Below are positions 14,600 to 46,052 of a stretch of DNA of 64,000 bases, in pieces. Below the pieces are notes generated by a model. It made no database searches, was not told where the DNA came from, and saw only the letters and a program-made list of their open reading frames with translations. Each line of letters begins with the position of its first letter. Position 1 is the first letter of the stretch. The DNA comes from Longimicrobiales bacterium (lineage in GTDB: Bacteria > Gemmatimonadota > Gemmatimonadetes > Longimicrobiales > Gaopeijiaceae), in NCBI GenBank assembly GCA_963664435.2, contig CAXXKM010000002.1:96001-160000 (forward strand). The letters are read 5' to 3'. A program made the position numbers and the translations under genes.

Positions 14600-15572
14600 C
14601 TAGTCGATCCCCCCGCCCGGCTGCGCGGCGCTCTCCACCCGTATCGACAGGATGTCGATGTCGTGGTACTGCTGGTGGCGTATGGATGAGGCGTAGTGGC
14701 GGAGAAGCCTTAGCGGGATTTCCGACCCGGAGCTCGGACCTCCCTCGCTCAGCATCACCAGCTGGTCCTCGATGTTGGTTTCGTCGGTGGTCGCGATGAA
14801 CTCGAGGTCGGCCGCGTCCCCGTCGTTGCCAGCGATGAGAAGCAGGCGCCGCTCCTCTCCCTCGGTCTCCTCGTCTCCGCGCATGAGGATCTGGACGGTC
14901 TCCTCGCCCACGGCGCGCAGGCGCCGCTCCATGTCCTCGCCCCAGCGCTTGCGTGCAGCGAACTTCACCATGAAGTCATCGATCTCGGACCAGATCGCCG
15001 GCGTCATCCGGGTCTTCAGACGCGACCGCCGTCCCCCGACCAGCTCTTCGAACATCGCCAGCAGGATGACGGTGAAGCCGCCGACGGTCATGCCGTTGCC
15101 GAGAATCTCGCCCCATATGCCCGGGAAGTACTCCGGGTAGATCCAATCGAACTGAAACGCGAGGCCGATCCAGAACGCTACGCCCACCACGAGGCCCTTG
15201 CGGAAGTCCAGGCCCTCCTGCAGCAGGATCTTCATTCCGAAGACGAAGATCAGGGCCACGATGATGATGAAGTATGCCGCGACCACGGGCCCCGGGATCG
15301 CGATGATCAGGTTGATGAACTTCGGCAGAAACGCGAGCGACACGAAGACGATGCCGACGCAGACACCGATCCGGCGGGCGGCGACGCCGGTGAGTTCGGC
15401 GACGCTGATGCTCATGCCGTAGGTGGTGTTCGGAACCGTTCCCGTGAGGCCGGAGAGCAGGTTGCCCAGCCCATCGGCGGAGATCGCCCCCTGGATGGAG
15501 CGGAAGTCGATCGCGCGCGGCCTGCGCCACGACACTCGCTGGATGGCGATGGCGTCCCCGAGCGTGTCCAGC
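14600..15572 (-). pseudogene. 3' half of a split NCS2 (xanthine/uracil) permease with a C-terminal soluble domain
   Basis: ADGLGNLLSGLTGTVPNTTY NCS2 region; joins in frame to 45262-46052 across the GTGTCCAGC repeat. Confidence 0.88.
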
Positions 15573-15666
15573 AAGCACTATGAAGTTTGTATCGTGTTGT
15601 GCCTGTTTGTGTTAGGTATTCGGCGGACGAAATTACCGCTGTTTGATTCCCGCCGATTGCGAAATC

Positions 15667-16664
15667 TCAGGCGCGAGCCCTCGGGCGGCTTTCCAGAGCC
15701 GTCCTGAGCCGTCCCGCGTCGGGCCTCTGGTAGCACCTGAGCACCGTGTGTGCGTTCTTCCAGCCGCCAAGCTCGCAGAGCACCTTGAGCGGCAGTTCCA
15801 TGAGGTCGCTGGCAAACTTGCGCCTCAGCGAGTGCCAACTCCGCCCCCGCTTCGGCTCCAGCCCCGCGAGGGTCTGCGCCCTGCACCACAGGCGGTAGGC
15901 CCATGCGCGGCCCATGCACCGGGAGGCATCCTCCGCCGCGGGCAGCACTGGAGCGTCGCCCGTTCCCGCGCCCAAGCTCCGTGCCTCCTCCAAGGCCGCG
16001 ACCGCCTCGTCGGTCACCGGCGTGGTGTGTTCGTAACCGGTCTTCTCGTGCTCGGCCCTCCACCGGATGGTCCTGCCCTCAAGGTCGATGTCCGTCCACC
16101 TCAGTTGACGGATCGCCCCGATCCGGTGCCCCGTCTCGTGGGCGAGCACCAGCGCGACGTGGAATCGCCAATCGACCCGCCGAGAGACCCCGAGCAGCGC
16201 CCGGTACTCGTCGTCGGTGAGGACGACCCGGTTGGGGTTCTTCTCCGTGGGCTTCCTGAGGCCCTTCAGCGGATTCCTGTCGAGGAGCAGGCGGCCCCGG
16301 TCGTCCCTAGACCTTGCGGCCCAGTTGAGGACCGCGACCAGGAACGTCAGGTCGTGTTCGACCATCCGGTCGGACACGGGCTTGCCGCTGGGGCCGATCC
16401 TCCCGGCGCGGCGCTCCTGGATGAACCGGTCCCAATCGCGCCGCGACAGAGTCGCCGGGTCCCGGTCCCCGCCGAAGAACTGGAGGAACATGGTTGTCGC
16501 GGTCCTGTCCCGGCACCGGACCCGCTCCGTTTTGGAGGGCGTCACCTCCTCTCCGTAGATTTCAAAAAGCGTACCCAGAGTGAGCGGCTCGGGCTCGGCG
16601 TCCTTCTTGCCGTTCATCTCCGGCGTCGCGAAATCGGCGGCGGCCTCGTCGGCCTGCCGCTTCG
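15667..16664 (-). pseudogene. Outer-element tyrosine integrase, C-terminal part
   Basis: GHRIGAI, EHEK, WHSLRR, LGGWK and RCYQ catalytic motifs; missing N-terminus found at 33333-33509. Confidence 0.9.
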
Positions 16665-16761
16665 ACATGAGCTAGCAGATTCACATCTTACTGTGATCGT
16701 TGAGCTTACGGGATTCGGAGATGTCGTTCCCGCTGTTTGATTCCCGCCGAATCGACCGGGA

Positions 16762-17925
16762 TCAGGTGCGGAGCCTCGGGCGGCTTTCCAGAGCCTTCCT
16801 GAGTTGTCCCGTGTCGGCCTGCTGGTAGCAGCGCAAAACCGTCTGGGCCTCCTTCCAGCCACCGAGTTCGCAGAGCACCTTCAGCGGAAGGTCCATGAGG
16901 TCGGACGCGAATTTCCGCCTCAGCGAGTGCCAACCACGCCCGCGCTTGCGTCCCAGCCCCGCAACGTCTTCGGCTCTGTTCCACCAGTAGCGGACCGGCG
17001 ACTTGCCCATGCACTTCGAGGCATCCCTGGACGCGGGCAACACCGGCGCGTCTCCGTTTCCGGGCTTCCTGCGCTGCGCCTCTTCCAAGGCGGCGAGCGC
17101 CTCGGCGGTCACGGGCGTGCGGTGCTCGTATCCGCTCTTCTCGTGCTCGGCGCGCCACAGGATCGTCCTGTCCTCGAAGTCGATGTCAGTCCACCTGAGG
17201 TTGCGGATGGCACCGATCCGGTGACCGGTTTCGTGAGCGAGCACGAGCGCGACGTGGAACCGCCAGTCGACCCGGCGGGACACTCGTAGCATCGCGTCGT
17301 ATTCCTCGTCGGAAAGGACGATCCGCGTCGGGTTCTTCTCCCTGGGCAGCTTGAGCCCTCGCAGCGGATTCGAGTCGAGCAGCAGACGGCCCTGCTCGTC
17401 CCTCGATTTGGAAGCCCAGTTGAGGACCGCGATCAGGAACTTCAGGTCGTTCTCGATCGTCCGATTCAACACCGGCCGGCCGCTCGGTCCGAGCCTGCCC
17501 GCGCGGCGCTCCCGGATGAACCGGTCCCAGTCCCGCTTCGACAGCGTCTCGGGTCTTCGGTTTGGCCCGAGGAAGTCGAGGAACATCCGCATCTGCATTC
17601 CGTCCCGCTGCCGAGTCTTCTCGCTCTTGGTGGGCGTCACCTCCTCGCCGTAGATTTCAAAAAGCGTTTCCAGAGTGAGCGGCTCGGGCTCGGCTTCCGC
17701 CTTGCCGTTGGGCTCGTGGACCGCGAAGCCAGCCGCAACCTCGTCCGCCTGCCTCTTGGCCCTCGGCCAGTCACGGTGCCCCAGCGACCTCGTGAGCCTG
17801 CGCCCGTTATCGCGCCACTCGATCTGGTATCGGCCGGTCTTGGGATCGGCGAACACCCTCACCCGGTTGCGGCCCCATTCGCCGGCGCTGTAGCTGCGCC
17901 GACTTCGTTTCGTGCGTGCCATCAT
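16762..17925 (-). CDS. Intact tyrosine recombinase/integrase (387 aa)
   Basis: R-K-HxxR-W-Y catalytic set; N-terminal RVRVF...YQIEWRDNGRRLTRSLG resembles an arm-binding domain; highly similar to the outer integrase. Confidence 0.92.
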   Translation of the reverse strand: MMARTKRSRRSYSAGEWGRNRVRVFADPKTGRYQIEWRDNGRRLTRSLGHRDWPRAKRQADEVAAGFAVHEPNGKAEAEPEPLTLETLFEIYGEEVTPTKSEKTRQRDGMQMRMFLDFLGPNRRPETLSKRDWDRFIRERRAGRLGPSGRPVLNRTIENDLKFLIAVLNWASKSRDEQGRLLLDSNPLRGLKLPREKNPTRIVLSDEEYDAMLRVSRRVDWRFHVALVLAHETGHRIGAIRNLRWTDIDFEDRTILWRAEHEKSGYEHRTPVTAEALAALEEAQRRKPGNGDAPVLPASRDASKCMGKSPVRYWWNRAEDVAGLGRKRGRGWHSLRRKFASDLMDLPLKVLCELGGWKEAQTVLRCYQQADTGQLRKALESRPRLRT

Positions 17926-18598
17926 TCGATTCCTCTCGCGATGGACCGCACGATCTGCGCGAAGGAAACTTGGCACACGGCGGGCTTCTTGACCAGCGCG
18001 GGGAGATGCTCTCCCGAGCCGATCCGAAGGGCGGATTCTGCGCGGTTCGGGGCCGTAGCGCGGGTGTCCGTTCGACATCTGAGGCGGGCGGACAAGAAAT
18101 CGTGTTTCCAACGGACAGTCTGCGGACCCGCCATATCGTTGGACGGCTTGCGTTTGTGCCTCGGCAAGATGAGCGGTCGCGGCACGCGGGCGCTGGCGGC
18201 CGTGGCTGGAGCGACCCGCCACTTTCGATGCCCGGCGTGCCATCGAGGAGTTCGCCATCGGACACGCCGATGCCGTCCTCCGCGTGGAGGTCGCTCCAGT
18301 CCAGCAATCCCTTTCGGGGAAGGGCGGCCCGAGATCCGCAGATGATGGTCGCCGATGGTTTGGAGGCCGCCTTGAGCCTTCCAGCCGTGGTAAGGCGCTC
18401 GCGCCCGCCGTTGTGCGCACCGTACCAAGGAGCGGGTGGACCGGCCCGCCTCGCCGGGTCGATCTTGCAGACAAACGCGAACGGTGCCGAATCTTGGTGG
18501 GACGTGGGAAGCGGCGGCAGGCCGCCCCCTTCCCACCGTTGCCGCATCCCACCGCAAGGCGGAGGGAGAGAGACCCATCCCCGCAAGGAGGAACCGCC

Positions 18599-20299
18599 AT
18601 GACCGAAGAGCCCGCGATCAAACCGAGAACTCCCGACCAGATCTTCCACATCCTGAGCGAGGACTTCCGCCGGCGCGTGGTGAAGCGCGCCCTGAAGCAC
18701 CGTTCCGGGTCCAAGGCGCTCCGGCGACAACGCGGGGCCGCCCTGCGGCGTCTCCGGGTGGACGGATACCGGGACGCCAGCCGCGCGCCCCGGCCGAAGC
18801 TCCTCCAGCCCGTGCTGGAGGCGATCAAACATCACGACCGGGACCTCGCGCGCGCCGTTCTCAATCATTGGGTGGACTCGCACGGCACGCTTCGCGATCA
18901 AGCCGCCGGGCACCTCGCAAGCCGGGGCACGCCCGTGCCCGAGCCACCGGACGCGTGCTTCGATGGCTTCTGGACGCGCGAGCAATGGCGGAGCGAACGG
19001 CAGGCACTGGCGGCGGCGGTCGACGAGGCCGTCGACCGCGACTCGGCCGGTCTGATGCTCTGTCTCCGCGCGCGCCGGTTCCCCGCGCCGCCGCCACTGG
19101 TGTCGCCGCTCTTCCGGGACTGGCTCGACATCCTGCAAGACCTCCCTCCCAACGCGCCCGAGTGGGAGGAAGCGGACGCCCTCATCAAATGGATGGAGGA
19201 CATCCGGCGCGAGAAGGAGCGCGAACTCATCGGCTGGTGCCGGGAGCAGATCGCGAGCCTTTGCCGCTCCCTTCAAGAGCGGTTCGGCGAGGAACTGCGC
19301 TACCTCGGGATCGACCCGGATCCCTGGCCCGGACTGGTCGAGAGTCGGCCCGCGCTGATCGGGTCGGCGCTTCCGTTGCTCATCTACTTGGAAGTCACCT
19401 TCGAGGAGTACGCGCCGATTCGTCCCCAAGCCGCCTCGCGAGCCGAGGAGCTTGAGCGGTCCCTGAAGCGCGGCGAATGCGAGGACGCCATTCTCGGAGC
19501 GGTCGATGCGTGGCGGGAGCGGGTTGCCCAGCCCGACCCGCCGGACGAGGACGCCACGGGGGAGATGGCCGACGCCGACAGGGCGCGTCCGGCCTCCGGG
19601 ACGGCGGACGGCACGGATGCGGAGACCGAACCTGCCTCCGGAGCGTCCGTGAAAGAGGACGATTCAACCCGGCGCGAGATCGAGGCCCTTCGTGAGGACC
19701 GCGAGCGCCTCGAAGCGGACAACCGAACGCTCCGGGAGGGGAAGGCGCTGGGAGACGAGGAGGCCGGACGGCTCCGGGAGGAGGTTGCGCGAAGCCGTAG
19801 GATGGAGGAGCACTGGCGGCGCGCCTACGTCGAGGAGCGCAGGCAGGCCCGGACGAATGAGCGTGAGCCGGTGGCCGCGGAGCCCGTGGGGAGCGTCCGC
19901 GAAGCCATCGCGCAGGCGCGGAAGATGTTCCCCGACAGGCTGCTCATCAAGCTCAACTCCCGATCGAACGAGGACACGCCGTTCGCGAATCCCACCGAGG
20001 TGTTCGACGCGCTGGCGTGGCTCGCCACGGCGTACCGGAACGGCCCGACCGACCGGATAGGGGAAACCTGCCCTGGCTGGTTCTACAAGTCGAACCAGTC
20101 GGCTGTCACGATGGGACGGTTCCCGGACTGGTACCGGACCAGTGTCAACGGAACGGCTTGGAAGCTGGCCGCCCACCTCGGCAAGGGGACCAGTCACGAC
20201 CCGCACCACACGATCCGGATCGCCTTCGCCTGGGACGAGCAGAACGAACGCGTCATCGTCGGGTTCGTCGGCCTGCACCAGAGGAACCGGGCCTCGTAG
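18599..20299 (+). CDS. Hypothetical protein with coiled coil and possible RelE-like C-terminal domain
   Basis: AAGGAGGA RBS; coiled coil REIEALREDRERLEADN; C-terminal HLGKG...TIRIAFAWD...VIVGFVGLH. Confidence 0.7.
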   Translation: MTEEPAIKPRTPDQIFHILSEDFRRRVVKRALKHRSGSKALRRQRGAALRRLRVDGYRDASRAPRPKLLQPVLEAIKHHDRDLARAVLNHWVDSHGTLRDQAAGHLASRGTPVPEPPDACFDGFWTREQWRSERQALAAAVDEAVDRDSAGLMLCLRARRFPAPPPLVSPLFRDWLDILQDLPPNAPEWEEADALIKWMEDIRREKERELIGWCREQIASLCRSLQERFGEELRYLGIDPDPWPGLVESRPALIGSALPLLIYLEVTFEEYAPIRPQAASRAEELERSLKRGECEDAILGAVDAWRERVAQPDPPDEDATGEMADADRARPASGTADGTDAETEPASGASVKEDDSTRREIEALREDRERLEADNRTLREGKALGDEEAGRLREEVARSRRMEEHWRRAYVEERRQARTNEREPVAAEPVGSVREAIAQARKMFPDRLLIKLNSRSNEDTPFANPTEVFDALAWLATAYRNGPTDRIGETCPGWFYKSNQSAVTMGRFPDWYRTSVNGTAWKLAAHLGKGTSHDPHHTIRIAFAWDEQNERVIVGFVGLHQRNRAS

Positions 20300-20753
20300 G
20301 TTGGAGCGGTGATCGATGGCTTCACGGCTCGGCTGCCGCGAGGCCTGTTTTGACCGCCGGAAGCCCGTGCCGATGCCGATCCACGAGTGTACATGGTGCT
20401 TTGCGGGTCGCCGGACACGAAATCGCGCCTGCGATGTACATGCTTCGGGTTCCATATGCTGCTGGCGCGCTTGCGGTTGCGTCACGGCTGGCGGGGCGCC
20501 GATGTCGATCCGCGCTCCTTGGACGTGGCTGGGAGAGACCCCCCACTTCGGCATGCCTCAATCGGCACCGGGGGGGATGGGGCCGGACACCCCATCCCCC
20601 CGCCGCTACGGGGTCTCTCCCAGCCAGCAGTCCCCTTGTGGGGAAGGCGTTTGGCAGCCGTCGTCCACGCCCGCCTCGGATGTCTCGAAGCCGCCGAGGC
20701 GCTTTGGCCGGCCGGTCAGGGGCGCGTGGTGCTCTCGACCCGTCTCGTTGCGC

Positions 20754-21401
20754 TCAGCCGCGCGCCGCCTCCATGATCTCGGCCACATAGTCATCCAACC
20801 GGGCCATCACCTCGATCACTTCCGCCTTGCTCTCCGCAGTCGCGAGTTCCTTGGCCAGATCAAGCAGCAGACGGCGGACCGCAACCGGGTCGCCCGCCTG
20901 CGGCGGCGGCGCATCCTCGGGGGCAGTCTCTTCAACCGCTGGGACCTCCGGCTCCGGCGGCGTCTTGGGCTCGGGCGCGGCGGCCCTTGCGAGGCGCGCC
21001 TTCACTTGCAGGGGATACCTCGCGTGGAACTGCCGGGCCGAGAGCTCCGCAACGGAGGGGTCGATCTCGCGGGCACCCGCGAACAGGTCCGCGTTCGACA
21101 CGTTCGGGTCCACTTCGAGCGTCCGCTCCACGAACTCCATGACCGCGGCGCCATCGCCCGATGCCGCGGGCGCGGGGACAGGCTCCGGGACCGCTTTGCG
21201 CTGCCGCGCGGGCTGCCGCTGCTCCGCCATCCGCCGCGTCACCGGCAACCGATACCTGGCGTGAAACTGTTGCGGCCTAAGCTCCCCGATCGACTCGTCA
21301 ATCTCGCAGGCACCCGCGAACAGGGCGGCGTTCTTCACGCCGGGGTCCTTCCTCATTTCCTGTTCCACATACTGCATGACGGCATCATGCAAGCAGCCCA
21401 T
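20754..21401 (-). CDS. Hypothetical protein with an internally duplicated ~55-aa domain
   Basis: VMQYVEQEMRKDPGVKNAALFAGACEIDESIGELRPQQFHARY versus VMEFVERTLEVDPNVSNADLFAGAREIDPSVAELSARQFHARY. Confidence 0.8.
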   Translation of the reverse strand: MGCLHDAVMQYVEQEMRKDPGVKNAALFAGACEIDESIGELRPQQFHARYRLPVTRRMAEQRQPARQRKAVPEPVPAPAASGDGAAVMEFVERTLEVDPNVSNADLFAGAREIDPSVAELSARQFHARYPLQVKARLARAAAPEPKTPPEPEVPAVEETAPEDAPPPQAGDPVAVRRLLLDLAKELATAESKAEVIEVMARLDDYVAEIMEAARG

Positions 21402-21720
21402 GTCCGTTACCCTCTCTGGAGGCGGGTCCGCGTTCGCTGGATGCGGATGAGTCGGCGGTTATTCGACCAAGAATACTCGACGGGTGGTCGGGCAGGGTCA
21501 ATGTTCGCGGGCGTTTGCGAGCGGCTGCGCCGGTCACCTGAAATAGCGCCAGTGATGCGCCGGTGCCGGGAGGACGCTCTGCAACCTCACCGTCCGCGAC
21601 CGACGCCGGGTCGCCGCCCGAGACCGCTGGCGCCCCGAGGCGCAGCGCCGACAGGATCAGCAGCAGCCCGGCAGCGCCGAGGACGACGACCGCACCGACG
21701 CGCCACATCCGCTCGACCAT
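21385..21720 (-). CDS. Possible small membrane-anchored protein
   Basis: One hydrophobic stretch (VGAVVVLGAAGLLLILSAL); otherwise featureless. Confidence 0.25.
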   Translation of the reverse strand: MVERMWRVGAVVVLGAAGLLLILSALRLGAPAVSGGDPASVADGEVAERPPGTGASLALFQVTGAAARKRPRTLTLPDHPSSILGRITADSSASSERGPASREGNGHGLLA

Positions 21721-21783
21721 CACCCCGCCGACTCCCCAACCAGAGACGTCATCCGATCCGGCCAGTCGGCGGGGTAGATCTTC

Positions 21784-22040
21784 GCCTTCCCGCAGGGATA
21801 ATCCTTGGGGGAGCGACCCCGGGAGGGGGCGGGGACGAGCGTGCGAAAACGCGCACGGCCCCGCGCCCGAACCGGGCACCTGTGCCCCTGGGGTCGCTAC
21901 CCTCCACGCCCCAAGCCGCTCCTGTGCCACGGCCGACCGCGCGGCGAAGCTGCAAGACGTTGCCGCGCCACCGGATATGCAAGCCGGTCGGTGCGCATCA
22001 CGGGAGCGCCAAAATGTGCATTGACCCCCATTGTCTCTTG
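21784..22040. repeat. Non-coding repeat B, copy 1 (inner element)
   Basis: Colinear with 36154-36410: GCCTTCCCGCAGGGAT, AGCGACCC...GGGTCGCT, TTGCCGCGCCA, CATTGACCCCC. Confidence 0.8.
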
Positions 22041-22065
22041 CACACCTCCGGTACGGCCCCGGACA

Positions 22066-23903: not shown

Positions 23904-24586
23904 CGGCGGTTTCCCTCTTCCGAGCCTTCTCGGCTCGGCGAACCGCCGCGACCCGGAACGCACCGACATTGGGGGACGCTCCTCGGCCAGGCTCTTCATG
24001 CAGGTGGACCCGAACACGGTGCCGGCAAGCCGCGCAAGAGAGTAGGAAGTCGGATATTTCCCACGTCTCGACGGGGCAACGGGTTGCCGGATCCGGGTTG
24101 GGCCACGCGTCGCCAGTGGCCACTCGATGCGTGCTCTGCATCCCCGCGGAGGAGTTCCCTCGTCTGCACGTCGAACCTGTGTTTCAGCGTCTCCATCCCC
24201 GAACGGTGAAGGGTCGCTGGCAGGCGAGTCAACTCGCGGATAATCGCCTATTGTCCGATAACGTTCGAGGATGTTCGATAACGTAAAGCAGTCGAAGGTC
24301 GGTGCCGCCAGCAGCGTGGAAAACGCCCCCACGCCCGGTATCGGAGCGGAACCCGCGCCCTGGGATTCGGCCATTGTTGCTTGCAAGTGCCCGTGACGAC
24401 GGATTCCGTGCGGTCAACTGCTCTCGACCACTGCCGATAAACCCCCTTGGTGTGAGGGGAAATTCCCTCGCAAGTGGGGTGTCGGGCACTCTATTCGGCT
24501 CGGTGGCAATGGCCCAACGTTGTTGCGTCAATTGGCCGCGGTTCTTCGCGGCCTTCACAACCAACCCTCAGAACAGGAGGATTCCA

Positions 24587-24874: not shown

Positions 24875-24882
24875 GGTCCGCC

Positions 24883-24932
24883 TCGAATCAGGGGGAGGCG
24901 GGCGCGGGCTGGCCTGCTGCCCCCTGATTCGA
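24883..24932 (+). terminator. Stem-loop after the peptide gene (no U tract)
   Basis: TCGAATCAGGGGG / CCCCCTGATTCGA, perfect 13-bp stem. Confidence 0.6.
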
Positions 24933-24973
24933 CCGCGCTCTAGGGAGGAACAAAGGATGAAAGGAGACAATGG

Positions 24974-36079: not shown

Positions 36080-36153
36080 GCCCCGATTGACGTTCCCGGC
36101 GGCGACGGGTTCGGTGCTCGAGTGCAGACAAGCACCGGGACGGGGGCTGTACT

Positions 36154-36410
36154 GCCTTCCCGCAGGGATCGCTGGTTCGGTAGCGACCCGTAAGGGGTCG
36201 GGGAAGGGGTGCGCAAACACACCTGCCCCCGAACCCGTAGCAGGCCCTCGGACTGCCGGGTCGCTACGGTCACGCCTTGAGCGGCCAGTGCGCCACGGGC
36301 GCACGGGCGGCGAGGCCGAAAAGCGTTGCCGCGCCAGCGGATAAGCGGGAAGGCCGGTGCGTAGCGCCGGATCGCCAAGGTGCGCATTGACCCCCCATGT
36401 CGTTTGCGCG
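36154..36410. repeat. Non-coding repeat B, copy 2 (outer element)
   Basis: Colinear with 21784-22040. Confidence 0.8.
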
Positions 36411-36798
36411 TTTCAGTACGGCTCTAGAGGCGGGAGCGCCAAAAAAACCCCGGCGAACCGTTGCGTTCGCCGCTGGCCCACCGGGGATCCGGCCCTTGCG
36501 GACGAAGCCGCCTCGTATCCTTACGCCGTCTGCCCCGCCCGGGTTTCGGAGTATGCGGCCATCCGAGCCGCTGGCGGGGCTGGCCCCGGCGACCCGGATC
36601 ATGCTTTCAAGGGCCGACCTCCGGTGTCTTCGGCGACCGCTGCGGACAGATCAGCTTGGCGATAGAAGAGGGGAGGGCGTGAGCCGCGCGACTGACGTTC
36701 CGCGAGCGACTTGCATGGCGCGGACGGAGCCTGCCATTGTCCTTCCCTTGCCATTGTCCTTCCCTCGCTCGCCTTCCCGGAGGAGATTTCGAGGCAGC

Positions 36799-38808
36799 AT
36801 GCGCTCCCAAGCATGGGTCGTCCTCGCCCTCGGGGTACTGGTCGCCGCGTGCGATAGCCCACTGGCGCCCGCGGCTTGCGGTGCGCTGCCCCAGTTGACG
36901 GTCCACGTGGGGGACACGTCCGGCGTCACCGCCTGCTTCAATGACGTGAACGGCGATGCGTTGAGTTACGCGGTCGGGTCATCGAACCCCTCGGTGGCCA
37001 CGGTCTCGGTTGCGGGGGCGGAGGTGACGGTGCGCGCCATCGCCCCGGGCACCGCGACGGTCATGCTGACGGCCACCGATCCGGCGGGGCTTGGAGATCA
37101 GCAGAGTTTCGAGGTCGTCGTGCCGAACCGGGCGCCGCGGGCAGTGGCCACGGTCCCGGAGCAAAGGGTCGAGGCGGGCGCGGAGGTAGTCGTCGATCTT
37201 GCGTCCTGGTTCGAGGAGCCGGACGGCGAGCACCTTCGCTTCCGGGTGACGGTCTCGGACGCCGAAGTCGCGGGCGTGGCCGTCTCGGGCAATCGGGCGA
37301 CGTTGGCGGCGCGGGCGAGGGGCACCGCCTCCGTCGCCGTCACGGCGACGGATCCCGGGGGCCTGGCGGCTGTTCAGGTGTTCGGTTTCGAGGTACCCAA
37401 CCGGGAACCGGTCGCGCTGGGCGTGATCGAGGGTCAAGTCATGCGGCGCGGAGAGACGCGCGTGATCGACCTTGCGCCGTTTTTCGCCGATCCAGACGGA
37501 GAGCCGCTGCGCTACGCTTCGTCGTCGTCGAGTCCCGGCGCGGTTGCGGCGACCGTCTTGGGCGAGTCCGTGCGCCTGACCGCTTTCGGGGCGGGGCGGG
37601 CGGCGATCACGGTGACCGCGCGCGACCCCGACGGCCTGACGGCGGCTCACATGTTCGGCGCGGAAGCTCGGAACCGGGCACCGATTACGACCGGTGCCCT
37701 GCCGGATGTCGATTTGGGTGCGGGCGATACGATCCGGCTGGATCTTGCGGGCCGCTTCTCGGATCCGGACGGGGACACGTTGACCTATGTGGCATCGTCT
37801 TCGGACTCTGCGGTCGCGTCGGTGGAGGTGCGTGGAGAGACCCTGCTGCTTTGGGGAGTGCGCGAGGGGCGGGTCACGGTCACCGTCCTGGCTTCAGACT
37901 CGGGCGACTTATCGGCCGCGCTGTCCTTCCAAGCGACGGTGGCAGGCGGCCCCGGGGACCCTAGGTCCTTCCAGATCGAAATCCGCTTCGCCACGGTGCT
38001 GACGGCCGCGCAAGAGAAGGCGTTCCAGAGAATGGCGGCGCGGTGGATGGAGATACTGGAAGACACGGAGTTGCCGGACATGCCGGTGCCGGAAGGCGTT
38101 GTCACGTGCCGATCCCCGGCCAGGACGCACGAGCAAGACGTGAGTGTCGTCGATGACCTGATGATCGTGGCGTCAGTCGAGGAGATAGACGGCGTCGGCG
38201 GGACGATCGGTCGAGCCGGACCGTGCGGGACTCGCGCGGGATCGATGCTTCCATGGTTCGGCGTGATGGAGTTTGACGCGGCGGACATGGCCTGGATGGA
38301 GGCGGAAGGGATTCTGGAATCCGTGATTCTCCACGAGATGGGCCATGTGCTCGGCATCGGCCCGTTGTGGGACGGGTTCGGGCTCCTGCGCAATCCATCG
38401 CTGCCTGTGGAGCGGGAGGTGGACACGCATTTCGCGGGAGCGCTTGCGATCCGGGCGTTCGACGAAGCGGGCGGGACCTCCTACACCGCCGGTTCCAAGG
38501 TCCCGGTGGAGAACAAGGGGATCCGCCGCGGCAGGGACGACGTGCATTGGCGCAAGAACGTATTCGGCAACGAACTGATGAATCCGAGCGCCGAGCCCGT
38601 GATGCCCCTCAGCGCGGTAACGATCGCGTCGCTCTCGGATATGGGGTACGCCGCGCGAACGGACCTCGCCGACGCCTACCGTCTTCCGGGCGCGGCCGCG
38701 TTGCGTGCGCATCGAAGCCGCGCCGTCCCTCTCGGCGAAGACGTGATCCGCGGCCCCATCGAGGTCCGCGACCGGCATGGCCGGGTGGTGGGGATCATTC
38801 GCCCCTGA
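36799..38808 (+). CDS. Lipoprotein with Ig/cadherin-like repeats and a leishmanolysin-like zinc metalloprotease domain
   Basis: Lipobox LVAAC; repeats NRAP...F.DPDGD.L.Y; ILHEMGHVLGIG...HW...ELM. Confidence 0.85.
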   Translation: MRSQAWVVLALGVLVAACDSPLAPAACGALPQLTVHVGDTSGVTACFNDVNGDALSYAVGSSNPSVATVSVAGAEVTVRAIAPGTATVMLTATDPAGLGDQQSFEVVVPNRAPRAVATVPEQRVEAGAEVVVDLASWFEEPDGEHLRFRVTVSDAEVAGVAVSGNRATLAARARGTASVAVTATDPGGLAAVQVFGFEVPNREPVALGVIEGQVMRRGETRVIDLAPFFADPDGEPLRYASSSSSPGAVAATVLGESVRLTAFGAGRAAITVTARDPDGLTAAHMFGAEARNRAPITTGALPDVDLGAGDTIRLDLAGRFSDPDGDTLTYVASSSDSAVASVEVRGETLLLWGVREGRVTVTVLASDSGDLSAALSFQATVAGGPGDPRSFQIEIRFATVLTAAQEKAFQRMAARWMEILEDTELPDMPVPEGVVTCRSPARTHEQDVSVVDDLMIVASVEEIDGVGGTIGRAGPCGTRAGSMLPWFGVMEFDAADMAWMEAEGILESVILHEMGHVLGIGPLWDGFGLLRNPSLPVEREVDTHFAGALAIRAFDEAGGTSYTAGSKVPVENKGIRRGRDDVHWRKNVFGNELMNPSAEPVMPLSAVTIASLSDMGYAARTDLADAYRLPGAAALRAHRSRAVPLGEDVIRGPIEVRDRHGRVVGIIRP

Positions 38809-38962
38809 TGGACGGTGCGCCGATCCGATCCGGGCCGGGGTCGTTCGCGGGCGACAAGATGCGAAGCCCACCGAGTGCTTGTAGATTGTAGTGGGTACCG
38901 GTTTGGGGGCGTTGCGCCACCCCCGGACCACCAAGCGTCGTTTGCCACCACTGGACCACAAC

Positions 38963-41900
38963 ATGACCCTCGCTTCAGCTACCCCCCCCCCCCCGAAACA
39001 TATGTAGCGGCTGTACTTAGAAGGCGTCCGGCCCGGTTCGCGCTTCGGACGGCAATCCTGCTGGCACTCTGGGTGGTGGCGTGCGAGAACCCCTTGGGTC
39101 CGGATCCCTGCGGCCCGATCCCGGAGGTGACGGTGCATGTCGGCGAGACGTCCCACGTCACCCCCTGCTTCAACGACCCGAACGGCGACATGCTGGTCTA
39201 TGCGGCCGCGTCGTCGAACCCTTCGGTCGCCTCCGCCTCGGTCTCCGGCACCTCGGTCACCGTAACCGGGGTTGCGCCCGGCAGCGCCTCGGTCACGCTG
39301 ACGGCCCGTGACCCCGGAGGGCTCCAGGGCCAGCAGAGCTTCACGGTCACGGTTCCCAACCGGGCGCCTCAGCCGAGGGGCACGCCGCCCGGCGTTACCG
39401 AGCGGGTCGGCGCCATCGCGACGGTCGACATGGCCGAGTACTTCACGGATCCGGACGGGGAAGCGCTCACCTACACGGCGAGCCCTTCGGATCCCGAGGT
39501 GGCGGGCGTGAGCGTTGCGGGTTCGGTGGTCACGGTCACCGCTTTGGCGAAGGGCAGTGCCACCGTGACGGTGACCGCACGCGATCCCGGGGGCCTCTCG
39601 GCCACGCAGTCCTTCCCGTTCGCGGTTCCCAACCGGCCGCCTGTTGCGGTGGGAACGCTTCAGCCGCAAACGATCGAGGTGGGCCAGTCCGTCACTCTCG
39701 ACGTGGTCGCTTCGTTCAGCGACCCGGACGGCGACGACCTGAGCTACACGGCCGCCTCATCGGCACCGTCGGTTGCGCGCACGAGCGTGGCGGGCAGCGT
39801 GGTCACGATCACCGCGGAAGGAAAGGGAACGGCCACGGTCACGATCACGGCGAGCGACGACGAGCCGGCAAGCGCGATTCAACAGGTGAGCGTGACGGTG
39901 TCCAACCGGCCGCCCGTGGCAGTGGGAACGCTTCAGCCGCAAATGATCGAGGTGGGCCAGTCGGCCACCCTCGACGTGTCCGCTTCGTTCAGCGATCCTG
40001 ACGGCGACGACTTGAGCTACACGGCCGCCTCATCGGTCCCGTCGGTTGCGCGCACGAGCGTGGCGGGCAGCGTGGTCACCATCATTGCGGAAGGACCGGG
40101 AGCGGCCACGGTCACGATCACGGCGAGTGACGACGAGCCGGCGACGGCGACCCAGCAGGTGAGCGTCACGGTGCCCCAGCCGAACCGGCCGCCACGCCCG
40201 GAGGGCACCGTCCCGGACCAGTCCATCGAAGCGGGCCGCCGTGCCACTGTGAACGCCGGGCGGTACTTCAGCGATCCTGACGGGGACGCGTTGACCTACT
40301 CGGCCTCGTCGTCCAACGGGACGGTGGCCGGTGTCTCGGTGTCGGACTCGACCGTGACGATCACAGCTGCGAGTCCCGGGACCGCGACGATCACGGTTAC
40401 AGCCCAGGACCCCGAGGGCCTCAGCGCGGCGCAGGACATCCGGGTCGACGTGGAGTCGGCGGGCGCGCCGGATCTGGAGTTCACCGGCGTCACCCCGACA
40501 TCGGTGACGGGGTCGCCGGGCGGGTCGGTGCAGGCCGCATTCACGCTTCGGAACGCGGGCGACGCGACCGCGCCCGCCACGACGATCCGCCTTTACGAAT
40601 CGTCCGACCCATCCATATCGACCAGTGACACGGAGATCGCGAGCGATCGAACCTCTGGGCTTCCGGCGGGGCAGAGCCGGACAATCACCGGAACGGTCAA
40701 CCTGTCGAGCCAAGCCTCCGGCACCTTCTACTTCGGGATTTGCGCCGACGCCGTTTCCGGCGAATCCGACACGGGCAACAACTGCTCGACCGGTGTCAGG
40801 GTGACGGTCACGGGTTCCGGCGCGCCGGATCTGGAGTTCACCAATGTCACGCCGACCTCGGTGACGGGGTCGGTCGGCGGGTCGGTTCAGGCCGATTTCA
40901 CGATCCGGAACACCGGCGACGCGCCGGCGCCGGCCACAACGATCCGCCTCTACCAGTCAGGCAACTCGACAATCTCGACGACGGACGACGAGATCGGTCG
41001 AACGGCCTTCGCCGGCCTCGCCGCTGGGCAGAGCCGGACGATTACCGGGACCGTGGCGAACCTGACCGCAGGCTCCTTCTACTTCGGCATCTGCATCGAT
41101 GCGGTGTCCGGCGAATCCGACACGGCCAACAACTGCTCGCGGGGCGTCCGCGTGACCGTCGGCGGGTCCGGCGGCCCCGATCTGGTGGTGAGTCTCTCCA
41201 GATCGAGCGTCACGGTGTCGCGCGGAAGCAGCTTTTCGTACGAACTGACGGTGCGCAACCAAGGCGACGAGGCGGCGGCGGCCACCCTCGTACGGACCCT
41301 GATTTCGGCCGACGCGACCATTTCCACCAACGACACCGACGTCGGCGCCGCTGCGGTGCCTTCCCTGAACCCGTCCGAGGAAGTGAGCGGCGAGGCCTTG
41401 ATCGAGATCGACGCCGGTGCTCCGTTGGGCACCGTCTATGTCGGGGAATGTGTCGACGCCGTTTCCGGCGAATCGGACACGAGCAACAACTGCTCGTCGG
41501 CGATAAGGGTCACGATACGGACCAACGGTGGCGGCAGCGACACGACGTACACGACGGGGCAGACGATCGAGACCCTCCCGACCGGATTCTGGACTCCGGA
41601 CACCTCGGGCGGCGGCATTTCCTTCCGGTACTCCAGCGGCGTAGCGACCGTGGAGTTCACCGGCACCAGTTCGTACATCGTCGAGGGCAACATCCGCTAC
41701 AGCTGTCTGACCAGCACGGGGTGCGAAATCGTGAACCGGCGGGTCACCCAGGGCAGCATCCGGGCCAGCAGGCAGTCGAGCGGCAGCCTGACGGTCGAAC
41801 CGCAATGGGATGGCCTGCTGCACTCTACGCGAGCGGAATGGACGGTCATCCGCCCGCGCCCCGGCGACGATCCGTCCGCGCTCCGCCTTCCGGTCGAGGG

Positions 41901-42006
41901 CGTCCTGCGCGTCAAGCCGGGCACCGAGCCGCAAGACGATGAAACCAGTCCGGTGAGGCGCGCGGTGACAGGCGGGACAATCTCCTCGTCCTCGGGCATT
42001 CGCTAG
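38963..42006 (+). CDS. Large Ig-repeat / CARDB-like surface lipoprotein; likely start out of frame across a C13 tract
   Basis: Lipobox WVVAC; five Ig-like repeats; three PDL...D.VSGESDT.NNCS repeats; ATG 38963 is separated from the body by poly-C 38982-38994. Confidence 0.8.
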
Positions 42007-42036
42007 AGCAGAACCCCCTGAAATGAAAGGCAAACG

Positions 42037-42675
42037 ATGAAGAAACGCATCCCCATCCTGCTGGCTCTTGCCGGCCTCATTCTGATCGCCGCTCCCCTGA
42101 CGGCCCAGAAGACCCTCGGTCTGCGGGGCGGAGCCGGCTTCGCCTCCGTTTCCGTCGAGGAAGTGGGTCTCGATTCCGGATCCCGCAGCGGCATCGTCGT
42201 GAGCGCGGACCTGACCATTCCCGGACCCGGACTGTTCGACATCAGGGTCGGCGGCGCCTACGTGCAGAAAGGCGGAGGGTTCGGTGCCGATGAGCTCGAA
42301 GGATTGAGCGTCGGGCTCAACATCGACTACGCCCAGTTCTCGGGGTTGGCGCGCATCGGCACACACGCCGAGGGCGGACTGTTCGTGGGCGTGATGGCCG
42401 GTCCATGGATCGCGTTGCGGCTCTCCTGCAATCTGGAGGCTTCCGCTCCGGGGGAGGGCGTCAACATCAGTTCGAGTTGCTCCGACGCAGAGCTTGAGAC
42501 CAAGGCCCTGGACTACGGGATCGCCCTGGGCGCGGGCGCGGACTTCCCCATGGCCGGGATGCGCTTGGGCGTTGACGTGCTCTACTCGCTCGGCCTTGCG
42601 CCGGTGGCCGAGGACGACGACGCCATGACGCGGCACTTGGCCATCCAAGCGGGGATCAACATCCCGATCGGGTAG
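42037..42675 (+). CDS. Outer-membrane beta-barrel (porin-like) protein
   Basis: Signal peptide; GLRGGAGF, YVQKG, DYGIALGAG, DVLYSLGL. Confidence 0.8.
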   Translation: MKKRIPILLALAGLILIAAPLTAQKTLGLRGGAGFASVSVEEVGLDSGSRSGIVVSADLTIPGPGLFDIRVGGAYVQKGGGFGADELEGLSVGLNIDYAQFSGLARIGTHAEGGLFVGVMAGPWIALRLSCNLEASAPGEGVNISSSCSDAELETKALDYGIALGAGADFPMAGMRLGVDVLYSLGLAPVAEDDDAMTRHLAIQAGINIPIG

Positions 42676-42786
42676 TGGGCTGCGGCAGGCCCCGACACGG
42701 GGCAAAACGCACATGTTGAGTTGTCGGGCGGGCCGAATCGCCGGGACGAAGTGTTCCAACTGCCCGACAGCGCAAGGAAGCATTTC

Positions 42787-43596
42787 ATGATGATGTCGAT
42801 GATCAAAGCCGCCCGTGGACCGGCCAGCGTTCTGGTGCTGCTCGCACTGGCGGCCTCGCTGAGCGGTTGTTCCACACTCTTCATTCAGGAACCGCCTCGA
42901 ACGGGAATCGCCGCGCCCGGTTTGGCTGCGAGCGCGCCCCAATGCACGACGACTTCGATCTTGCCCGGAGCCTATCTTGCGGGTGCCACATTGCTGGGCA
43001 TCGTCGGCGTGACGGGCCTTGCCGTTGCTGCGGCGGGTGGATTGGAACCGGGAGGGGAGGGGGTGACAGCGGCGCTCACCGGTGCGGGCATGGGACTTGC
43101 CGGAGGGGTTGCCGGCTACAATCAAGCCAAAACCGGGCTTGAACGCATCAACGAATGCCGCGCGCTGCACCGGCGGTGGCAGAGCCAGCGCCTGAAAGAA
43201 CTGAGCCCCGGAGCGGCGCCGTCTCCGACAATTCCGGCGGATGGGGCCTGGTGCAGGGACTTGAGATTTCGGGATGTGCTCCCTCTCGCAGGGGACGTCT
43301 TAGGTGGGTCAGTGTGGCTGTTGGGCGGCCTTGCGGGGAGTGTGGGGGACGCGGAACGGACTTCCGGGGAAAAGGTGGGCGTCGCTGCAATCTCGGTCGC
43401 AGTCGGAGGCGCCTTTCTTTACTCGGGACGGATCGGCCGCAAGCGCTTGGAGCGAGGGTGTATGCCCACACTCCGCGATCCCTACAAGAGCGGCATCCGG
43501 AGCGTCGCGCCGGATTCCCTTCTGCCGTTGCGGGTAACTCCTGACACGCTCGTGGCTCCCGACCCGGGAGCCAGACAGAAGGGATCGGTCGGCTGA
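42787..43596 (+). CDS. Hypothetical membrane lipoprotein
   Basis: Lipobox LSGC; two similar Gly-rich hydrophobic hairpins, each followed by a basic Cys-containing motif. Confidence 0.55.
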   Translation: MMMSMIKAARGPASVLVLLALAASLSGCSTLFIQEPPRTGIAAPGLAASAPQCTTTSILPGAYLAGATLLGIVGVTGLAVAAAGGLEPGGEGVTAALTGAGMGLAGGVAGYNQAKTGLERINECRALHRRWQSQRLKELSPGAAPSPTIPADGAWCRDLRFRDVLPLAGDVLGGSVWLLGGLAGSVGDAERTSGEKVGVAAISVAVGGAFLYSGRIGRKRLERGCMPTLRDPYKSGIRSVAPDSLLPLRVTPDTLVAPDPGARQKGSVG

Positions 43597-43871
43597 GTGG
43601 TTGCGGGGCCGCCGCCGGCCCCCATCTCCAGGCCAGTCTGGCTCCGAGAACGGTCAGGCTGCCTTCGCGCGTTCCGAAGCGCTGGCCTCACTCCCGATGG
43701 GTTTGATGCAGTCCTTGGAAGGCTGTGAGCGTCGGACCTACGACCCGGACACCAACAAGTGCAGTCTGACAGTTCGATACTTGAAGATTCGAGACGACAG
43801 GAAGACGCGGATCACGTTCTGGACGAGGGCCAGCGGCTTCTGCTACTTCCAAGGCACGGTGACCACGTAGC

Positions 43872-44786
43872 TCACGCGGGGTTGCCCGGTGCGGCCGCGT
43901 AGCGGAAGCCCGTCACCTCTTCGGTGACCCTCCAGAGGCGGCGCGCCAAGTCGTCGCTGCGGGCCGGTCCGCGGACGGGGATGCGGCGGGCCGGTCCCCT
44001 CAGCCCGAACCGGGGTCCGAAGAAGTCCAGCTTCCCGGCCGACGGATCGGTGGCGGCGCGCAGTTGTGGACGCACGCCGACATCGACCGGGGCGGCCAAC
44101 AGGCGGGCGAGCCGTCCGCCGATTCCGACCGACTGCTGGCGCTCGGTCCCGGTCAGGCCCGGATGGGCCGCGAGCGACAGGGCCGCCGCGCCCGCGGCGT
44201 CTAACCGTCCCTGAAGCTCCCGCGCGAACAACAGGTTGGCCAGCTTGCTGTCGCCGTACGCCTTGCCGCGGCTGTACGGACGCCCGCGCCAGTCCAGATC
44301 GCCGAAGTCGATGACGCCGGCCCGGTACGCGCCGCTGGTCACCGTGACCACGCGCGCGCCCGGCGTTGCCACCAGCAGCCCGAACAGATGTCCCGTGAGC
44401 AGGAAGTGGCCGTAGTGGTTCGTGGCCATGTGCATCTCGTGGCCGAGCGGCGTCCGTTGCAGTTCGGCGAGATTCACCACGCCCGCGTTGTTCAGCAGGA
44501 TGTCGAGGCGACCCGTTCGGGCGGCGACGCGTCCGGCAAAGCGCTCGATGCCCACCGGATCGGTGAGGTCCAGCGCGAAGCCCTCGACCCTCGCGCCCGG
44601 CAGGTCGGACAGAACCGCTCCGACGGCCGCCTGCCCCTTGGCCGCGCTGCGGCTGGACAGGAAGACCCGCGCGCCCCTGCGGGCCAACTCGCGAACGGAT
44701 CTGAAGCCGAGCCCCGTGTTGCCTCCGGTCACGACGGCCGTGCGGCCGCGAAGAGGCGGAATGTCTTCAAGTGTCCAGCCGGGCAT
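43872..44786 (-). CDS. Short-chain dehydrogenase/reductase
   Basis: TGGNTGLG, NNAG, YGDSK, AHPG. Confidence 0.92.
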   Translation of the reverse strand: MPGWTLEDIPPLRGRTAVVTGGNTGLGFRSVRELARRGARVFLSSRSAAKGQAAVGAVLSDLPGARVEGFALDLTDPVGIERFAGRVAARTGRLDILLNNAGVVNLAELQRTPLGHEMHMATNHYGHFLLTGHLFGLLVATPGARVVTVTSGAYRAGVIDFGDLDWRGRPYSRGKAYGDSKLANLLFARELQGRLDAAGAAALSLAAHPGLTGTERQQSVGIGGRLARLLAAPVDVGVRPQLRAATDPSAGKLDFFGPRFGLRGPARRIPVRGPARSDDLARRLWRVTEEVTGFRYAAAPGNPA

Positions 44787-45261
44787 CGGGTTTCTCCGGG
44801 CAGGCAAGGCGTCGGGCCGCGTGTCGTCACTCGGGCCGCCGAACCTCGGCGGCCCGGGAATCTAGCGAAACCGCCCGGTTCGCTTCCACAAGCCTCTCCG
44901 TTCAGGGAGCCGGGCCGGGCGACGTCGCGATGATGCATCCCATCGGAGGGTCGGCGCATCGGTGTCCGCGTCCGGTGCTCCGCCCACCGCCGAATGATAG
45001 CGATCCACGCCGATCGCGGGCTGGCCGTCTTGGCCGTCGAGGTCGATCCGATTGCCGGTGAGGGAGACGGTCGGCAACGTCGGCTTCCGGGACCTTGGTC
45101 AGAGGCGGGGCGGGCGCGGGAGTCCCGCCATTCAAGTACGTTTTTCCCGCTTTGGCGGCACGGTCCAGCAAGGTCCAGTACAACGACAGGAAACGCAGAT
45201 CGTGCAGTCCTGTATGTAGTTAGAAGATCTACTGCCGTGATCCGGACCTCAGGTGCTCCGT

Positions 45262-46052
45262 GTGTCCAGCGCGCCCACCAGCGTCACCATGATGAAGGAC
45301 GGCAGGAGCGCCCAGAACTCCGGTCTGAAGCTGAGGTCGACGCCGGGATAGGCCCGTGGGGGCAACCCGATCCAGGCAGCTTCCGCAACCGCGGATGTGT
45401 CGTACAGGCCGAATCCCAGCCGGGCGGTCAGGCAGCCCGCGACGATGCCGATGGCCGGTGCCCACAGGCGCAGTGCCCCGGAGGCCCGAAGCGGGACGAG
45501 GATCATGACCAGCAGCGTCACCCCCGCGATGACCGGGCCCGCGGCGGGCGAAACATCCGGGGGCACCTCGCCCAGCTTGCGAACGATGAGGGGCGAGAGG
45601 GTGATCGGGATGAGGAGCAGCACGGTGCCGGCGACCATGGGCGTAAAGATTCGCCTGAGGAGCGCCATCCTCGCCGCCAGGACGAACTGAATCAGGGCGG
45701 ACGCGATGATCAGGGTCGCGAGCATGCCCGGTCCGCCCTGCTCGAGCGCCGTCACGCTCACGGCGAGGAAGGCGCTCGTGCTCCCCATCACGAGGATGTA
45801 GCCGGCGCCGATGCGGCCCACCTTGCGCGCCTGAATCGCCGTCGTCACCCCGCTGACCACCAGCGCCGCGCACACCGCCCACGACAGGTAGTCGTCGCCC
45901 ATGCCGGCGACGGTGATCATCACCGTGGGCGTCAGGATGACGCTCGCGATGCAGAGGATGGCGTACTGGATGCCCAGCCCGGCCGTGATCGGCAGGGGGG
46001 GACGCTCGTCGGGTTCGTAGCGGACGTCCTGCCGGTCGATCGCCGAACTCAC
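45262..46052 (-). pseudogene. 5' half of the split NCS2 permease
   Basis: VRYEPDERPP...GLGIQY NCS2 N-terminus; ends at VGALDT on the 9-bp repeat. Confidence 0.88.

Follow-up and report, generated by a model that had tools for sequence, protein, structure and literature searches.

Why are a permease gene and an integrase gene both found in two pieces within one stretch of bacterial DNA, with one break lying inside the other? The stretch, referred to below as the window, comprises 64,000 nucleotides (nt) from a Longimicrobiales bacterium (positions 96,001 to 160,000 of contig CAXXKM010000002.1, assembly GCA_963664435.2), and its source genome amounts to 4.51 Mb in three contigs (C1–C3) with 68% G+C. 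Positions given without a contig name are those of the window. An outer element splits the permease gene, and an inner element splits the integrase gene of the outer one. Our analysis makes it likely that both are members of a single family of integrative islands that rely on a lambda-like tyrosine integrase and have so far been found in Gemmatimonadota only (Longimicrobiales and sponge associates of the Candidatus Palauibacter type). The parts of the nested pair, with lengths in base pairs (bp) or amino acids (aa), are as follows.

14600–15572, minus strand: C-terminal part of the split NCS2/xanthine-uracil permease, the target gene of the outer element (Pfam Xan_ur_permease, E = 1.8e-26)
15564–15572, no strand: outer repeat GTGTCCAGC, left copy, with the putative 7-bp crossover GTGTCCA at 15564–15570
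15573–15666, minus strand: integrase-proximal end (I-end) of the outer element, a degenerate segment resembling half a tRNA, then the double GCGGGAA/T motif at 15636–15658
15667–16664, minus strand: C-terminal fragment of the outer integrase, residues about 56–387, catalytic domain intact (Pfam Phage_integrase, E = 6.7e-19)
16654–16664, no strand: inner repeat CTGCCGCTTCG, left copy, stem CTGC plus 7-bp crossover CGCTTCG (16658–16664)
16665–16761, minus strand: I-end of the inner element, double GCGGGAA motif at 16730–16752
16762–17925, minus strand: inner integrase, intact, 387 aa (domain, profile and structure-model matches)
17943–17958, minus strand: 16-nt motif GCAGATCGTGC(A/G)GTCC, directly upstream of the inner integrase start
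33270–33332, plus strand: far end (R-end) of the inner element, 16-nt motif at 33270–33285, CCGTGATTCGG box, 13-nt spacer
33333–33343, no strand: inner repeat CTGCCGCTTCG, right copy (repeat match)
33344–33509, minus strand: N-terminal fragment of the outer integrase, residues 1 to about 55, predicted arm-binding-type domain, its own 16-nt motif upstream at 33528–33543
45195–45261, plus strand: R-end of the outer element, 16-nt motif at 45195–45210
45262–45270, no strand: outer repeat GTGTCCAGC, right copy (repeat match)
45271–46052, minus strand: N-terminal part of the split permease (excision frame, intact alleles)

The two copies of GTGTCCAGC stand at 15564 and 45262, 29,698 bp apart, and those of CTGCCGCTTCG at 16654 and 33333, 16,679 bp apart. 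For the outer 9-mer, the window has six copies where 0.73 would be expected, which is weak evidence taken alone; the inner 11-mer occurs twice against 0.05 expected. The four extra copies of the 9-mer (564, 44771, 48229 and 50167) possibly reflect codon or peptide bias. Scripted excision of 15573–45270 left a single open frame through VGALDTLGD of 594 codons from stop to stop, in which the rejoined permease has 584 aa counted from the GTG at 46052, while excision of 16665–33343 left a single integrase frame through WARAKRQADE, 387 aa from the ATG at 33509. The left ends of the two elements align with each other at 76–81% column identity, as do the right ends, with motifs in common, and the inner integrase is 72% identical to the C-terminal and 81% to the N-terminal fragment of the outer one. 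A preliminary description of this locus, made from its sequence alone, had given these repeat positions and spacings, a restored 584-aa permease and a restored integrase as long as the inner one, and had proposed a nest of sibling elements; each of these statements holds.

Both insertion sites were also found unoccupied, in keeping with the search for empty alleles that had been suggested as a check. An uninterrupted sister of the outer element lies in the same genome at C3:59452–72494. The left block of the outer element (15559–16664) matches it at 100% over 1,106 nt and the right block (33333–45278) at 99.97% over 11,946 nt, and on the sister the two blocks overlap by exactly the 11-nt repeat; the inner element is therefore a precise insertion into the outer integrase gene. 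With regard to the permease, a homologue 88–94% identical, with an open frame of at least 599 aa, is present in 12 of 18 sampled genomes of the same genus, and two of these 12 read ...GGGCGCGCTGGA(C/T)ACGCTCGGGGA... uninterrupted through the site. The C-terminal permease part in the window is 92–94% identical to the intact alleles of the genus. The truncated form was found in two other genomes of the genus. In the same-genus genome G005 the truncated C-terminal part occurs three times (C1:10317, 4665799 and 4807516 of that genome), each copy aligned from residue 1 of the fragment; judged from the alignments, the occupied locus is duplicated there together with its host flank.

Do the ends of the window elements recur elsewhere in the genome? 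We aligned the DNA downstream of each integrase copy and the DNA around each copy of the far-end motif, and one layout accommodated both. Starting from the integrase side, it consists of the target, a 4-nt stem, the 7-nt crossover, a second 4-nt stem (usually NTGY), about 35 nt and a TAAG box, followed by the double GCGGGAA/T motif, the integrase from stop to start, the 16-nt motif and the cargo; beyond the cargo come the 16-nt motif inverted, a CCGTGATTCG box, a 13-nt spacer, the stem CYGC, the 7-nt crossover and again the target. The 16-nt motif in opposite orientation marks every far end. In both window elements the crossover begins 67 nt past the first base of this far-end motif, and on the integrase side it is equally distant from the integrase-end motifs, the attachment site of the element (attP) being about 100 nt downstream of the integrase stop codon. 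Every copy has the double motif at its integrase end and the 16-nt motif both at its far end and upstream of the integrase, and these are candidate arm-type sites.

Mapping the boundaries of the integrase homologues in this way, a step the preliminary description had put forward, yielded 41 far ends and 26 integrase-proximal ends genome-wide, with conserved motifs at fixed distances. For 18 of the 26 proximal ends, the same contig has a correctly oriented far end with an identical repeat of 7–15 nt in the predicted register, and these pairs delimit 4–43 kb. Three further pairs join the end of contig C1 and the end of C2, and two more flank a tRNA-Val gene, giving 23 mapped elements of 4–50 kb. 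In each of these 23 pairs the two junctions have the same heptamer; the probability that 7 nt agree by chance at a fixed register is about 6e-5 per pair. The minimal repeat is 7 nt in 8 of the 21 listed pairs, and hence the 9- and 11-nt repeats of the window consist of the crossover (GTGTCCA and CGCTTCG, respectively) plus extra identity in the stem. A reading of the window repeats as target duplications was replaced by that of a 7-bp crossover at a fixed register with chance or half-site extension. The top-level mapped elements total 431 kb, or 9.6% of the genome, a rough figure that includes one probable pair without a script check.

The only gene common to all 18 same-contig mapped elements is the integrase; gene clusters present in at least 10 elements were considered as further common genes and turned out to be shadow frames of the integrase gene. 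The genome contains 33 integrase matches, of which 23 are near full length at 69–100% identity and the others fragments, and the C-terminal fragment of the outer integrase is 100% identical to the intact gene of the sister. Both window integrases reach 57.9–68.8 bits with Pfam Phage_integrase (PF00589, cut-off 27.1), and the inner one matches PHROG 1 'integrase' over residues 12–380 (E = 2.7e-50); no curated NCBIfam family was reached, and no Pfam arm-domain family matched at E up to 0.01. Residues R236, K263, H333, R336, W357 and Y367 are unchanged in all 27 relatives aligned, and from the usual motif pattern we take them to be the catalytic R-K-H-R-H/W-Y set. An AlphaFold model (mean predicted local distance difference test score, pLDDT, 67.6) contains an N-terminal four-strand sheet with a helix (residues 12–64; strands 12–47, helix 53–64, pLDDT 75–83), a helical middle domain and a catalytic domain. 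Its best matches among solved structures are full-length lambda integrase chains (1z1g, E = 3.4e-7), then XerA, then the Tn1549 integrase. According to the model, the N-terminal domain is of the lambda-like, arm-binding type, and the inner element cut the outer integrase within helix 53–64, parting the predicted arm-type domain from the rest.

In order to see how targets are chosen, we collected the junctions of 80 loci of other genomes, kept from 166 confirmed relatives, together with those of the copies in this genome, which gave 100 junctions, 89 of them distinct. Among the distinct junctions there are 49 different heptamers. Their outer positions are conserved (C at position 1 in 64/89, G at position 2 in 66/89, G at position 7 in 58/89) and the middle is free; on the target side the heptamer is followed by G (52/89), C (71/89), A/T and G (45/89), that is, by a weak GC(A/T)G. 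Such targeting fits an intermediate specificity, resting on the heptamer and a few flanking bases. About 10 of 21 reconstructed empty sites lie well within a frame of coding-like base composition. The lineage with CGT(A/T)ACG lands in a 23-nt palindrome, AACCCTGACGT(A/T)ACGTCAGGGTT, of which the genome has about nine further copies (up to 3 mismatches). Copies of this palindrome, e.g. at C1:121686, C1:888648, C2:230888, C2:945678, C3:891905 and C3:1457563, are perfect or near-perfect, often stand a few codons from the end of a gene, and look like repetitive extragenic palindromes or terminators.

Could these be ordinary site-specific islands, each with one fixed chromosomal attachment site (attB), numerous and sometimes nested, and without any relaxed or re-programmable targeting? 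The lineage with CGCAGTA, which occupies the same two conserved gene contexts in many genomes, would agree with this, as would the occupation of the permease site in two other genomes of the genus and the classical use of tRNA genes by three members described below. However, the outer element and its 99.97% identical sister share GTGTCCA and a left-hand GAGC and are nevertheless in different loci, the permease gene and the 3' end of an IS1595-type transposase gene. The CGCGTAG lineage, moreover, has 16 distinct junctions with unrelated flanks, and the lineage of the inner element (relatives of at least 87% identity and two junctions of this genome) is divided between integrase genes (5 of 10 distinct junctions) and unrelated sequence (the other 5). 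We therefore regard fixed-site islands as unlikely and retain the family with intermediate specificity.

The hits on sibling integrases are recurrent and not a one-off. A relative of the inner element, 93% identical (C1:1570118–1572355), interrupts a second integrase of this genome at residue 56, and its heptamer, CGAAGAA, matches the local KKQ codons. The splitting element itself holds a third element just upstream of its integrase, so that a three-deep nest runs from the end of C1 into the end of C2 (C1:1570012 to the contig end and C2:1086157 to the contig end; heptamers TGGCCCA, CGAAGAA and TGTCCGC); from the matching heptamers, these two contig ends are adjacent in the real chromosome. 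The integrase at C2:830956–832107 has a further element, C2:832105–839147, lodged between its start codon and the 16-nt motif. In the other genomes, a piece of a second integrase lies just beyond the end of the first in 12 of 80 loci: it begins at residue 56 in L014, L015, L017 and L021, at residue 85 in L022, L031 and L032, and at residue 48 in L036, and is in reverse orientation in L023, L030, L037 and L078. Integrase genes make up well under 1% of the genome, and five integrase-gene junctions in ten are thus a strong enrichment. It may result from selection, through safe landing or removal of a competitor, or simply from conserved codons that resemble the preferred core. In the window, the end of the inner element supplies an in-frame ATG to the truncated outer integrase (M-S-K-R-Q..., 16662–16668), 97 nt 3' of the inner integrase stop, and an arm-less integrase could thereby be co-transcribed. 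The equivalent triplet is ATG in two insertions of this genome, TTG in L014, L015 and L017, and CTG in L021; we dropped the ATG as a designed feature, and it is probably incidental.

The heptamers of these junctions bear on a second alternative, transposition in the style of Tn916 or CTnDOT, in which mismatched crossovers are tolerated, the heptamer of the previous site is carried along and heptamers drift with use. The heptamer of the inner lineage does track the local integrase-gene sequence (CGAAGCG, CGAAGAA, CGAAACG), the 94%-identical L023 uses the same integrase site in opposite orientation with the heptamer flipped, and the pattern of conserved outer and free middle positions across the 89 junctions would also be expected. 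Mismatch tolerance would usually leave unlike ends, though, and the heptamers are alike at both ends of every one of the 23 mapped pairs, so that we set this type aside as quite improbable and keep to exchange between identical heptamers.

Assembly was considered as well. The contigs of public runs break at repeats of the integrase family. One contig of run X2 spans 15000–15572 and then continues unlike the window, and in runs X15 and X19 position 16664 is joined to 33370 through 26 other letters, an arrangement that resembles an unsplit sibling integrase; neither case is decisive, and these contigs show no clean empty site. At the start of contig C3 (about 790–880) a far end abuts an integrase-proximal end head to tail, resembling an attP with a core about 3 nt short; this junction adjoins an integrase fragment (residues 286–387) and may stem from a tandem array, from the fusion of a circle or from an edge of the assembly. 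That mis-joined repeats in a metagenome-derived genome mimic the nesting is very improbable: in its favour, the assembly has three contigs, with one nest extending over two contig ends and a head-to-tail junction at the start of C3, and short-read contigs are broken at family repeats, but the junction bases match the intact sister and the intact permease alleles to the nucleotide, the same nested junction is present in independently assembled genomes (L014, L015, L017, L021), and a genome of the same genus has the same truncated permease.

Where does such a family come from? Three more distant members (69–71% identical) abut tRNA genes, namely tRNA-Val(TAC) and a tRNA-Pro-like gene. The tRNA-Val(TAC) gene (C3:1152266–1152340) is flanked head to head by two family elements (region C3:1131960–1202470). 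One of these brings the 3' half of the tRNA, and the 3' half that it displaced lies past its far end; the other does the same with the 5' half. For both elements the anticodon loop is the crossover. The present tRNA-Val gene thus appears to be assembled from two mobile elements. Islands and prophages in tRNA genes reportedly include an anticodon-loop class, set out by Williams in 2002, whose 7-nt crossover is the anticodon loop within a symmetric stem. The three tRNA-associated members are like this class in that the tRNA half carried by the element restores the gene, whereas the window elements and most siblings sit in coding genes, repeats and other mobile elements; for the window pair the sites are a permease gene and an integrase gene, not an anticodon loop.

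In the members outside tRNA genes, a 35-nt segment separates the TAAG box from the crossover, and it aligns column by column with the tRNA half of the three members. Scored in a fixed register with a matrix derived from 23 tRNA 3' halves of this genome, and compared with 200,000 random genomic 35-mers, 20 of the 26 ends rank above 95% of the random segments (p < 0.05) and 9 of 26 above 99.9% (p < 0.001), with zero shift best for most ends. We read the 35-nt segment as a decayed tRNA half that probably serves now as a core-type binding site, and on these alignments the family probably descends from anticodon-loop integrases and has since been retargeted. The preliminary description had seen neither tRNA-target nor conjugation genes; this is correct for both window elements but not for the family as a whole, which includes tRNA-targeting members and about nine siblings with a relaxase-like gene.

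Taken together, these findings suggest the following mechanism. The attP would carry arm-type motifs on either side of a core, itself the remnant of a tRNA anticodon stem-loop, in which a short stem and a second stem enclose the 7-bp crossover. The integrase would exchange strands at both edges of the crossover with any chromosomal site that has the same heptamer and a weak GC(A/T)G half-site, which would leave the heptamer at both junctions. The sub-lineages differ mainly in the heptamer, and each would thus have its own small set of possible sites among coding genes, the palindromic repeat, insertion sequences and sibling integrase genes. In the window, the outer element would have entered the permease gene at GTGTCCA first; the inner element would then have entered codons 56–58 of the outer integrase at CGCTTCG and left the outer element without an integrase of its own. 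The layout, the repeats in register, the empty sites, the copy number, the distribution, the tRNA-targeting members and the target consensus are observed; the positions of strand exchange, the need for heptamer identity, the binding of the arm motifs by the integrase and the way the elements pass between cells are inferred. A bolder reading, which we put forward tentatively and consider doubtful at present, is that of a naturally re-programmable integrase, in which one scaffold (copies 70–96% identical) serves at least 49 crossovers and a few attP bases redirect insertion, with at least three sub-lineages independently specialised on conserved codon blocks (48, 56 and 85) in the 5' end of sibling integrase genes.

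Several observations weigh against the family and the mechanism proposed. Having two conserved gene targets over many genomes, the CGCAGTA lineage acts as an ordinary site-specific island would. The copies scored for a tRNA relic are related, and hence their scores are not independent tests. The assembled contigs of the public runs revealed neither an excised circle nor an attP junction of either window element. Of the 26 proximal ends, eight are unpaired on their own contig, and of these five were paired later (contig ends, tRNA-Val), one is probable (C2:410352 with C2:426691) and two are still unpaired; about 15 far ends have no partner, so that rearrangements or copies in decay are frequent. 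In quality, the structure model is moderate overall and poor after residue 320, over the C-terminal 70 residues, and no excision factor was recognised, there being no common small gene upstream of the integrase or at the far end.

Among known systems, the closest working analogue is that of the ICEHptfs3/4 (TnPZ) elements of Helicobacter pylori, in which XerT recognises a heptanucleotide minimal target found at both junctions, at more than 40 sites and with nested elements (PMC4234485; see also PMC2731543). The likeness lies in the tyrosine recombinase, the heptamer at both junctions, the many sites ('intermediate integration specificity') and the elements within elements. In that account all elements share a single fixed motif, AAGAATG, and carry type IV secretion genes, whereas the sponge-symbiont family has at least 49 heptamers among close relatives and the cargo of the window elements contains no conjugation genes; membership in ICEHptfs/TnPZ was rejected on these two points. 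Judging by its name, XerT would be a Xer-like enzyme, and this recombinase type differs from the window integrase, whose model has an N-terminal arm-type domain. By descent and layout, the family sits with the lambda-like anticodon-loop integrases. It resembles lambda integrase in its predicted three-domain fold, the repeated motifs on both element arms and the 7-bp crossover, and differs in sequence (about 17% identity), in the lack of a phage gene set, in that no Xis was found and in having many targets instead of one.

Integrative and mobilizable elements are matched by the roughly nine siblings with a relaxase-like gene beside the integrase but not by the two window elements. In the 'suicidal' archaeal integrases of the SSV type, integration splits the gene into N- and C-terminal pieces (PMC7253208). 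There the element's own gene is divided, with attP inside it, whereas here a different element with its own ends and an intact integrase does the splitting. Self-splitting of the SSV type was excluded, since attP lies about 100 nt past the integrase stop and the splitter is a separate element, and so was a DDE transposon with target-site duplication, since the integrase alone is common to the 18 elements and the IS630-like remnant in the window is cargo.

All of the 80 loci come from Gemmatimonadota records (Longimicrobiales, Candidatus Palauibacter and 'Gemmatimonadetes' bins) or from short-contig bins of sponge metagenomes that carry the label Gammaproteobacteria. Of 151 genomes sampled evenly across the phylum, 23 match at E 1e-80 or better. 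The 14 with a close relative fall in two families (three genera), and 13 of them have at least three scored matches, with first-look candidates up to 65; the remaining nine have one or two homologues each at 44–50% identity. Public runs with the left part of the locus are mostly labelled as sponge metagenomes. The family is real, well supported and apparently undescribed, the last on the sole basis that no literature was found on Palauibacter integrases or on mobile genetic elements of Longimicrobiales. It belongs with the known integrative elements of intermediate specificity, as a variant, and is of interest for the variety of heptamers that a single integrase scaffold serves, for its tRNA relic, for its share of the genome and for repeatedly hitting sibling integrases.

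The cargo of the two window elements and a folded repeat within them are given below; OMP denotes outer membrane protein.

18284–33269, no strand: inner cargo region, the genes listed here and several unknowns
18284–20299: HEC-07-like protein, inner cargo (partial match in the defence-system scan)
22595–22880: second copy of the 280-nt repeat, inner element
24974–27298: TonB-plug/CarboxypepD_reg receptor-like protein, inner cargo
30151–31302: PAS histidine kinase, inner cargo
31537–32358, minus strand: IS630-like transposase remnant, inner cargo
32470–33123: LuxR-type response regulator, inner cargo
33935–34215, no strand: folded non-coding repeat of about 280 nt, upstream of the outer integrase
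34265–45194, no strand: outer cargo region
34265–36304, minus strand: periplasmic sugar-binding protein, outer cargo
36397–38808: large Ig/PKD/CARDB-repeat protein with a leishmanolysin-like part, outer cargo
38815–42006: second large Ig/PKD/CARDB-repeat protein, outer cargo
42037–42675: OMP beta-barrel, outer cargo
42721–43596: unknown protein, outer cargo
43872–44807, minus strand: short-chain dehydrogenase, outer cargo

Beyond the partial HEC-07-like match, the defence-system and NCBIfam scans of the inner cargo returned generic families only, and Pfam, defence-system and NCBIfam scans of the window cargo gave no phage, conjugation or relaxase genes in either element. The Ig/CARDB-repeat gene of the outer element contains tandem units of 273 nt and 351–357 nt with 61–92% identity (39169–40328 and 40462–41542). 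In metagenome contigs of three runs, the IS630-like remnant is without 14 nt at 31579, a polymorphism or a frameshift difference. Next to the interrupted permease, at 13440–14480, lies a gene with a Ku domain (Pfam Ku, E = 1.3e-47).

About nine siblings, including two that target tRNA genes, have a gene for a 533-aa protein directly upstream of the integrase, e.g. C2:836197–837795 (L105). All 8 copies of the protein that were tested show similarity to the MobA/VirD2 relaxase nuclease domain (E up to 0.01, best 4e-7), and one copy scanned in full reached 22.7 bits, under the Pfam cut-off of 24.6. An N-terminal Tyr and an H-x-H in its consensus are presumably the relaxase motifs; its profile gave nothing meaningful among solved structures and nothing in PHROGs. 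On this sequence evidence, part of the family may be mobilizable.

The conserved 280-nt repeat has 11 BLAST matches in the genome, mostly 0.2–3.5 kb upstream of family integrases, and weaker copies occur in the window at about 20451–20633 and 18129–18227. Its variable columns show no codon periodicity (29/28/25 by codon phase), and the predicted consensus fold is strong, at –125 kcal/mol, with a compensatory change in just 2 of 96 pairs. Rfam gave no match to the repeat, which may act as a regulatory RNA or as a site on the DNA of the elements.

In summary, the nest, the sister and the sibling hits support what had been proposed for this locus, a cargo-carrying, integrase-driven family that enters coding genes and disables its relatives. 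The family offers a clear case of mobile elements that repeatedly inactivate one another's integrase. If sub-lineages are indeed specialised on sibling integrases, they would be parasites of their own relatives, with harmless landing sites that multiply as the competitor does, and insertion would sever the arm-binding domain of the competitor from its catalytic body. The dozens of natural, closely related pairs of integrase and attachment site with different heptamers are candidate orthogonal or retargetable tools. For the annotation of sponge symbionts, the islands matter in that they bear receptors, regulators, surface proteins and defence-like genes and break host genes. Collectively, the family would show how a classical tRNA-targeting integrase becomes a near-transposon by changing just the crossover of its attachment site, with the result that such islands take up roughly one tenth of a symbiont genome.

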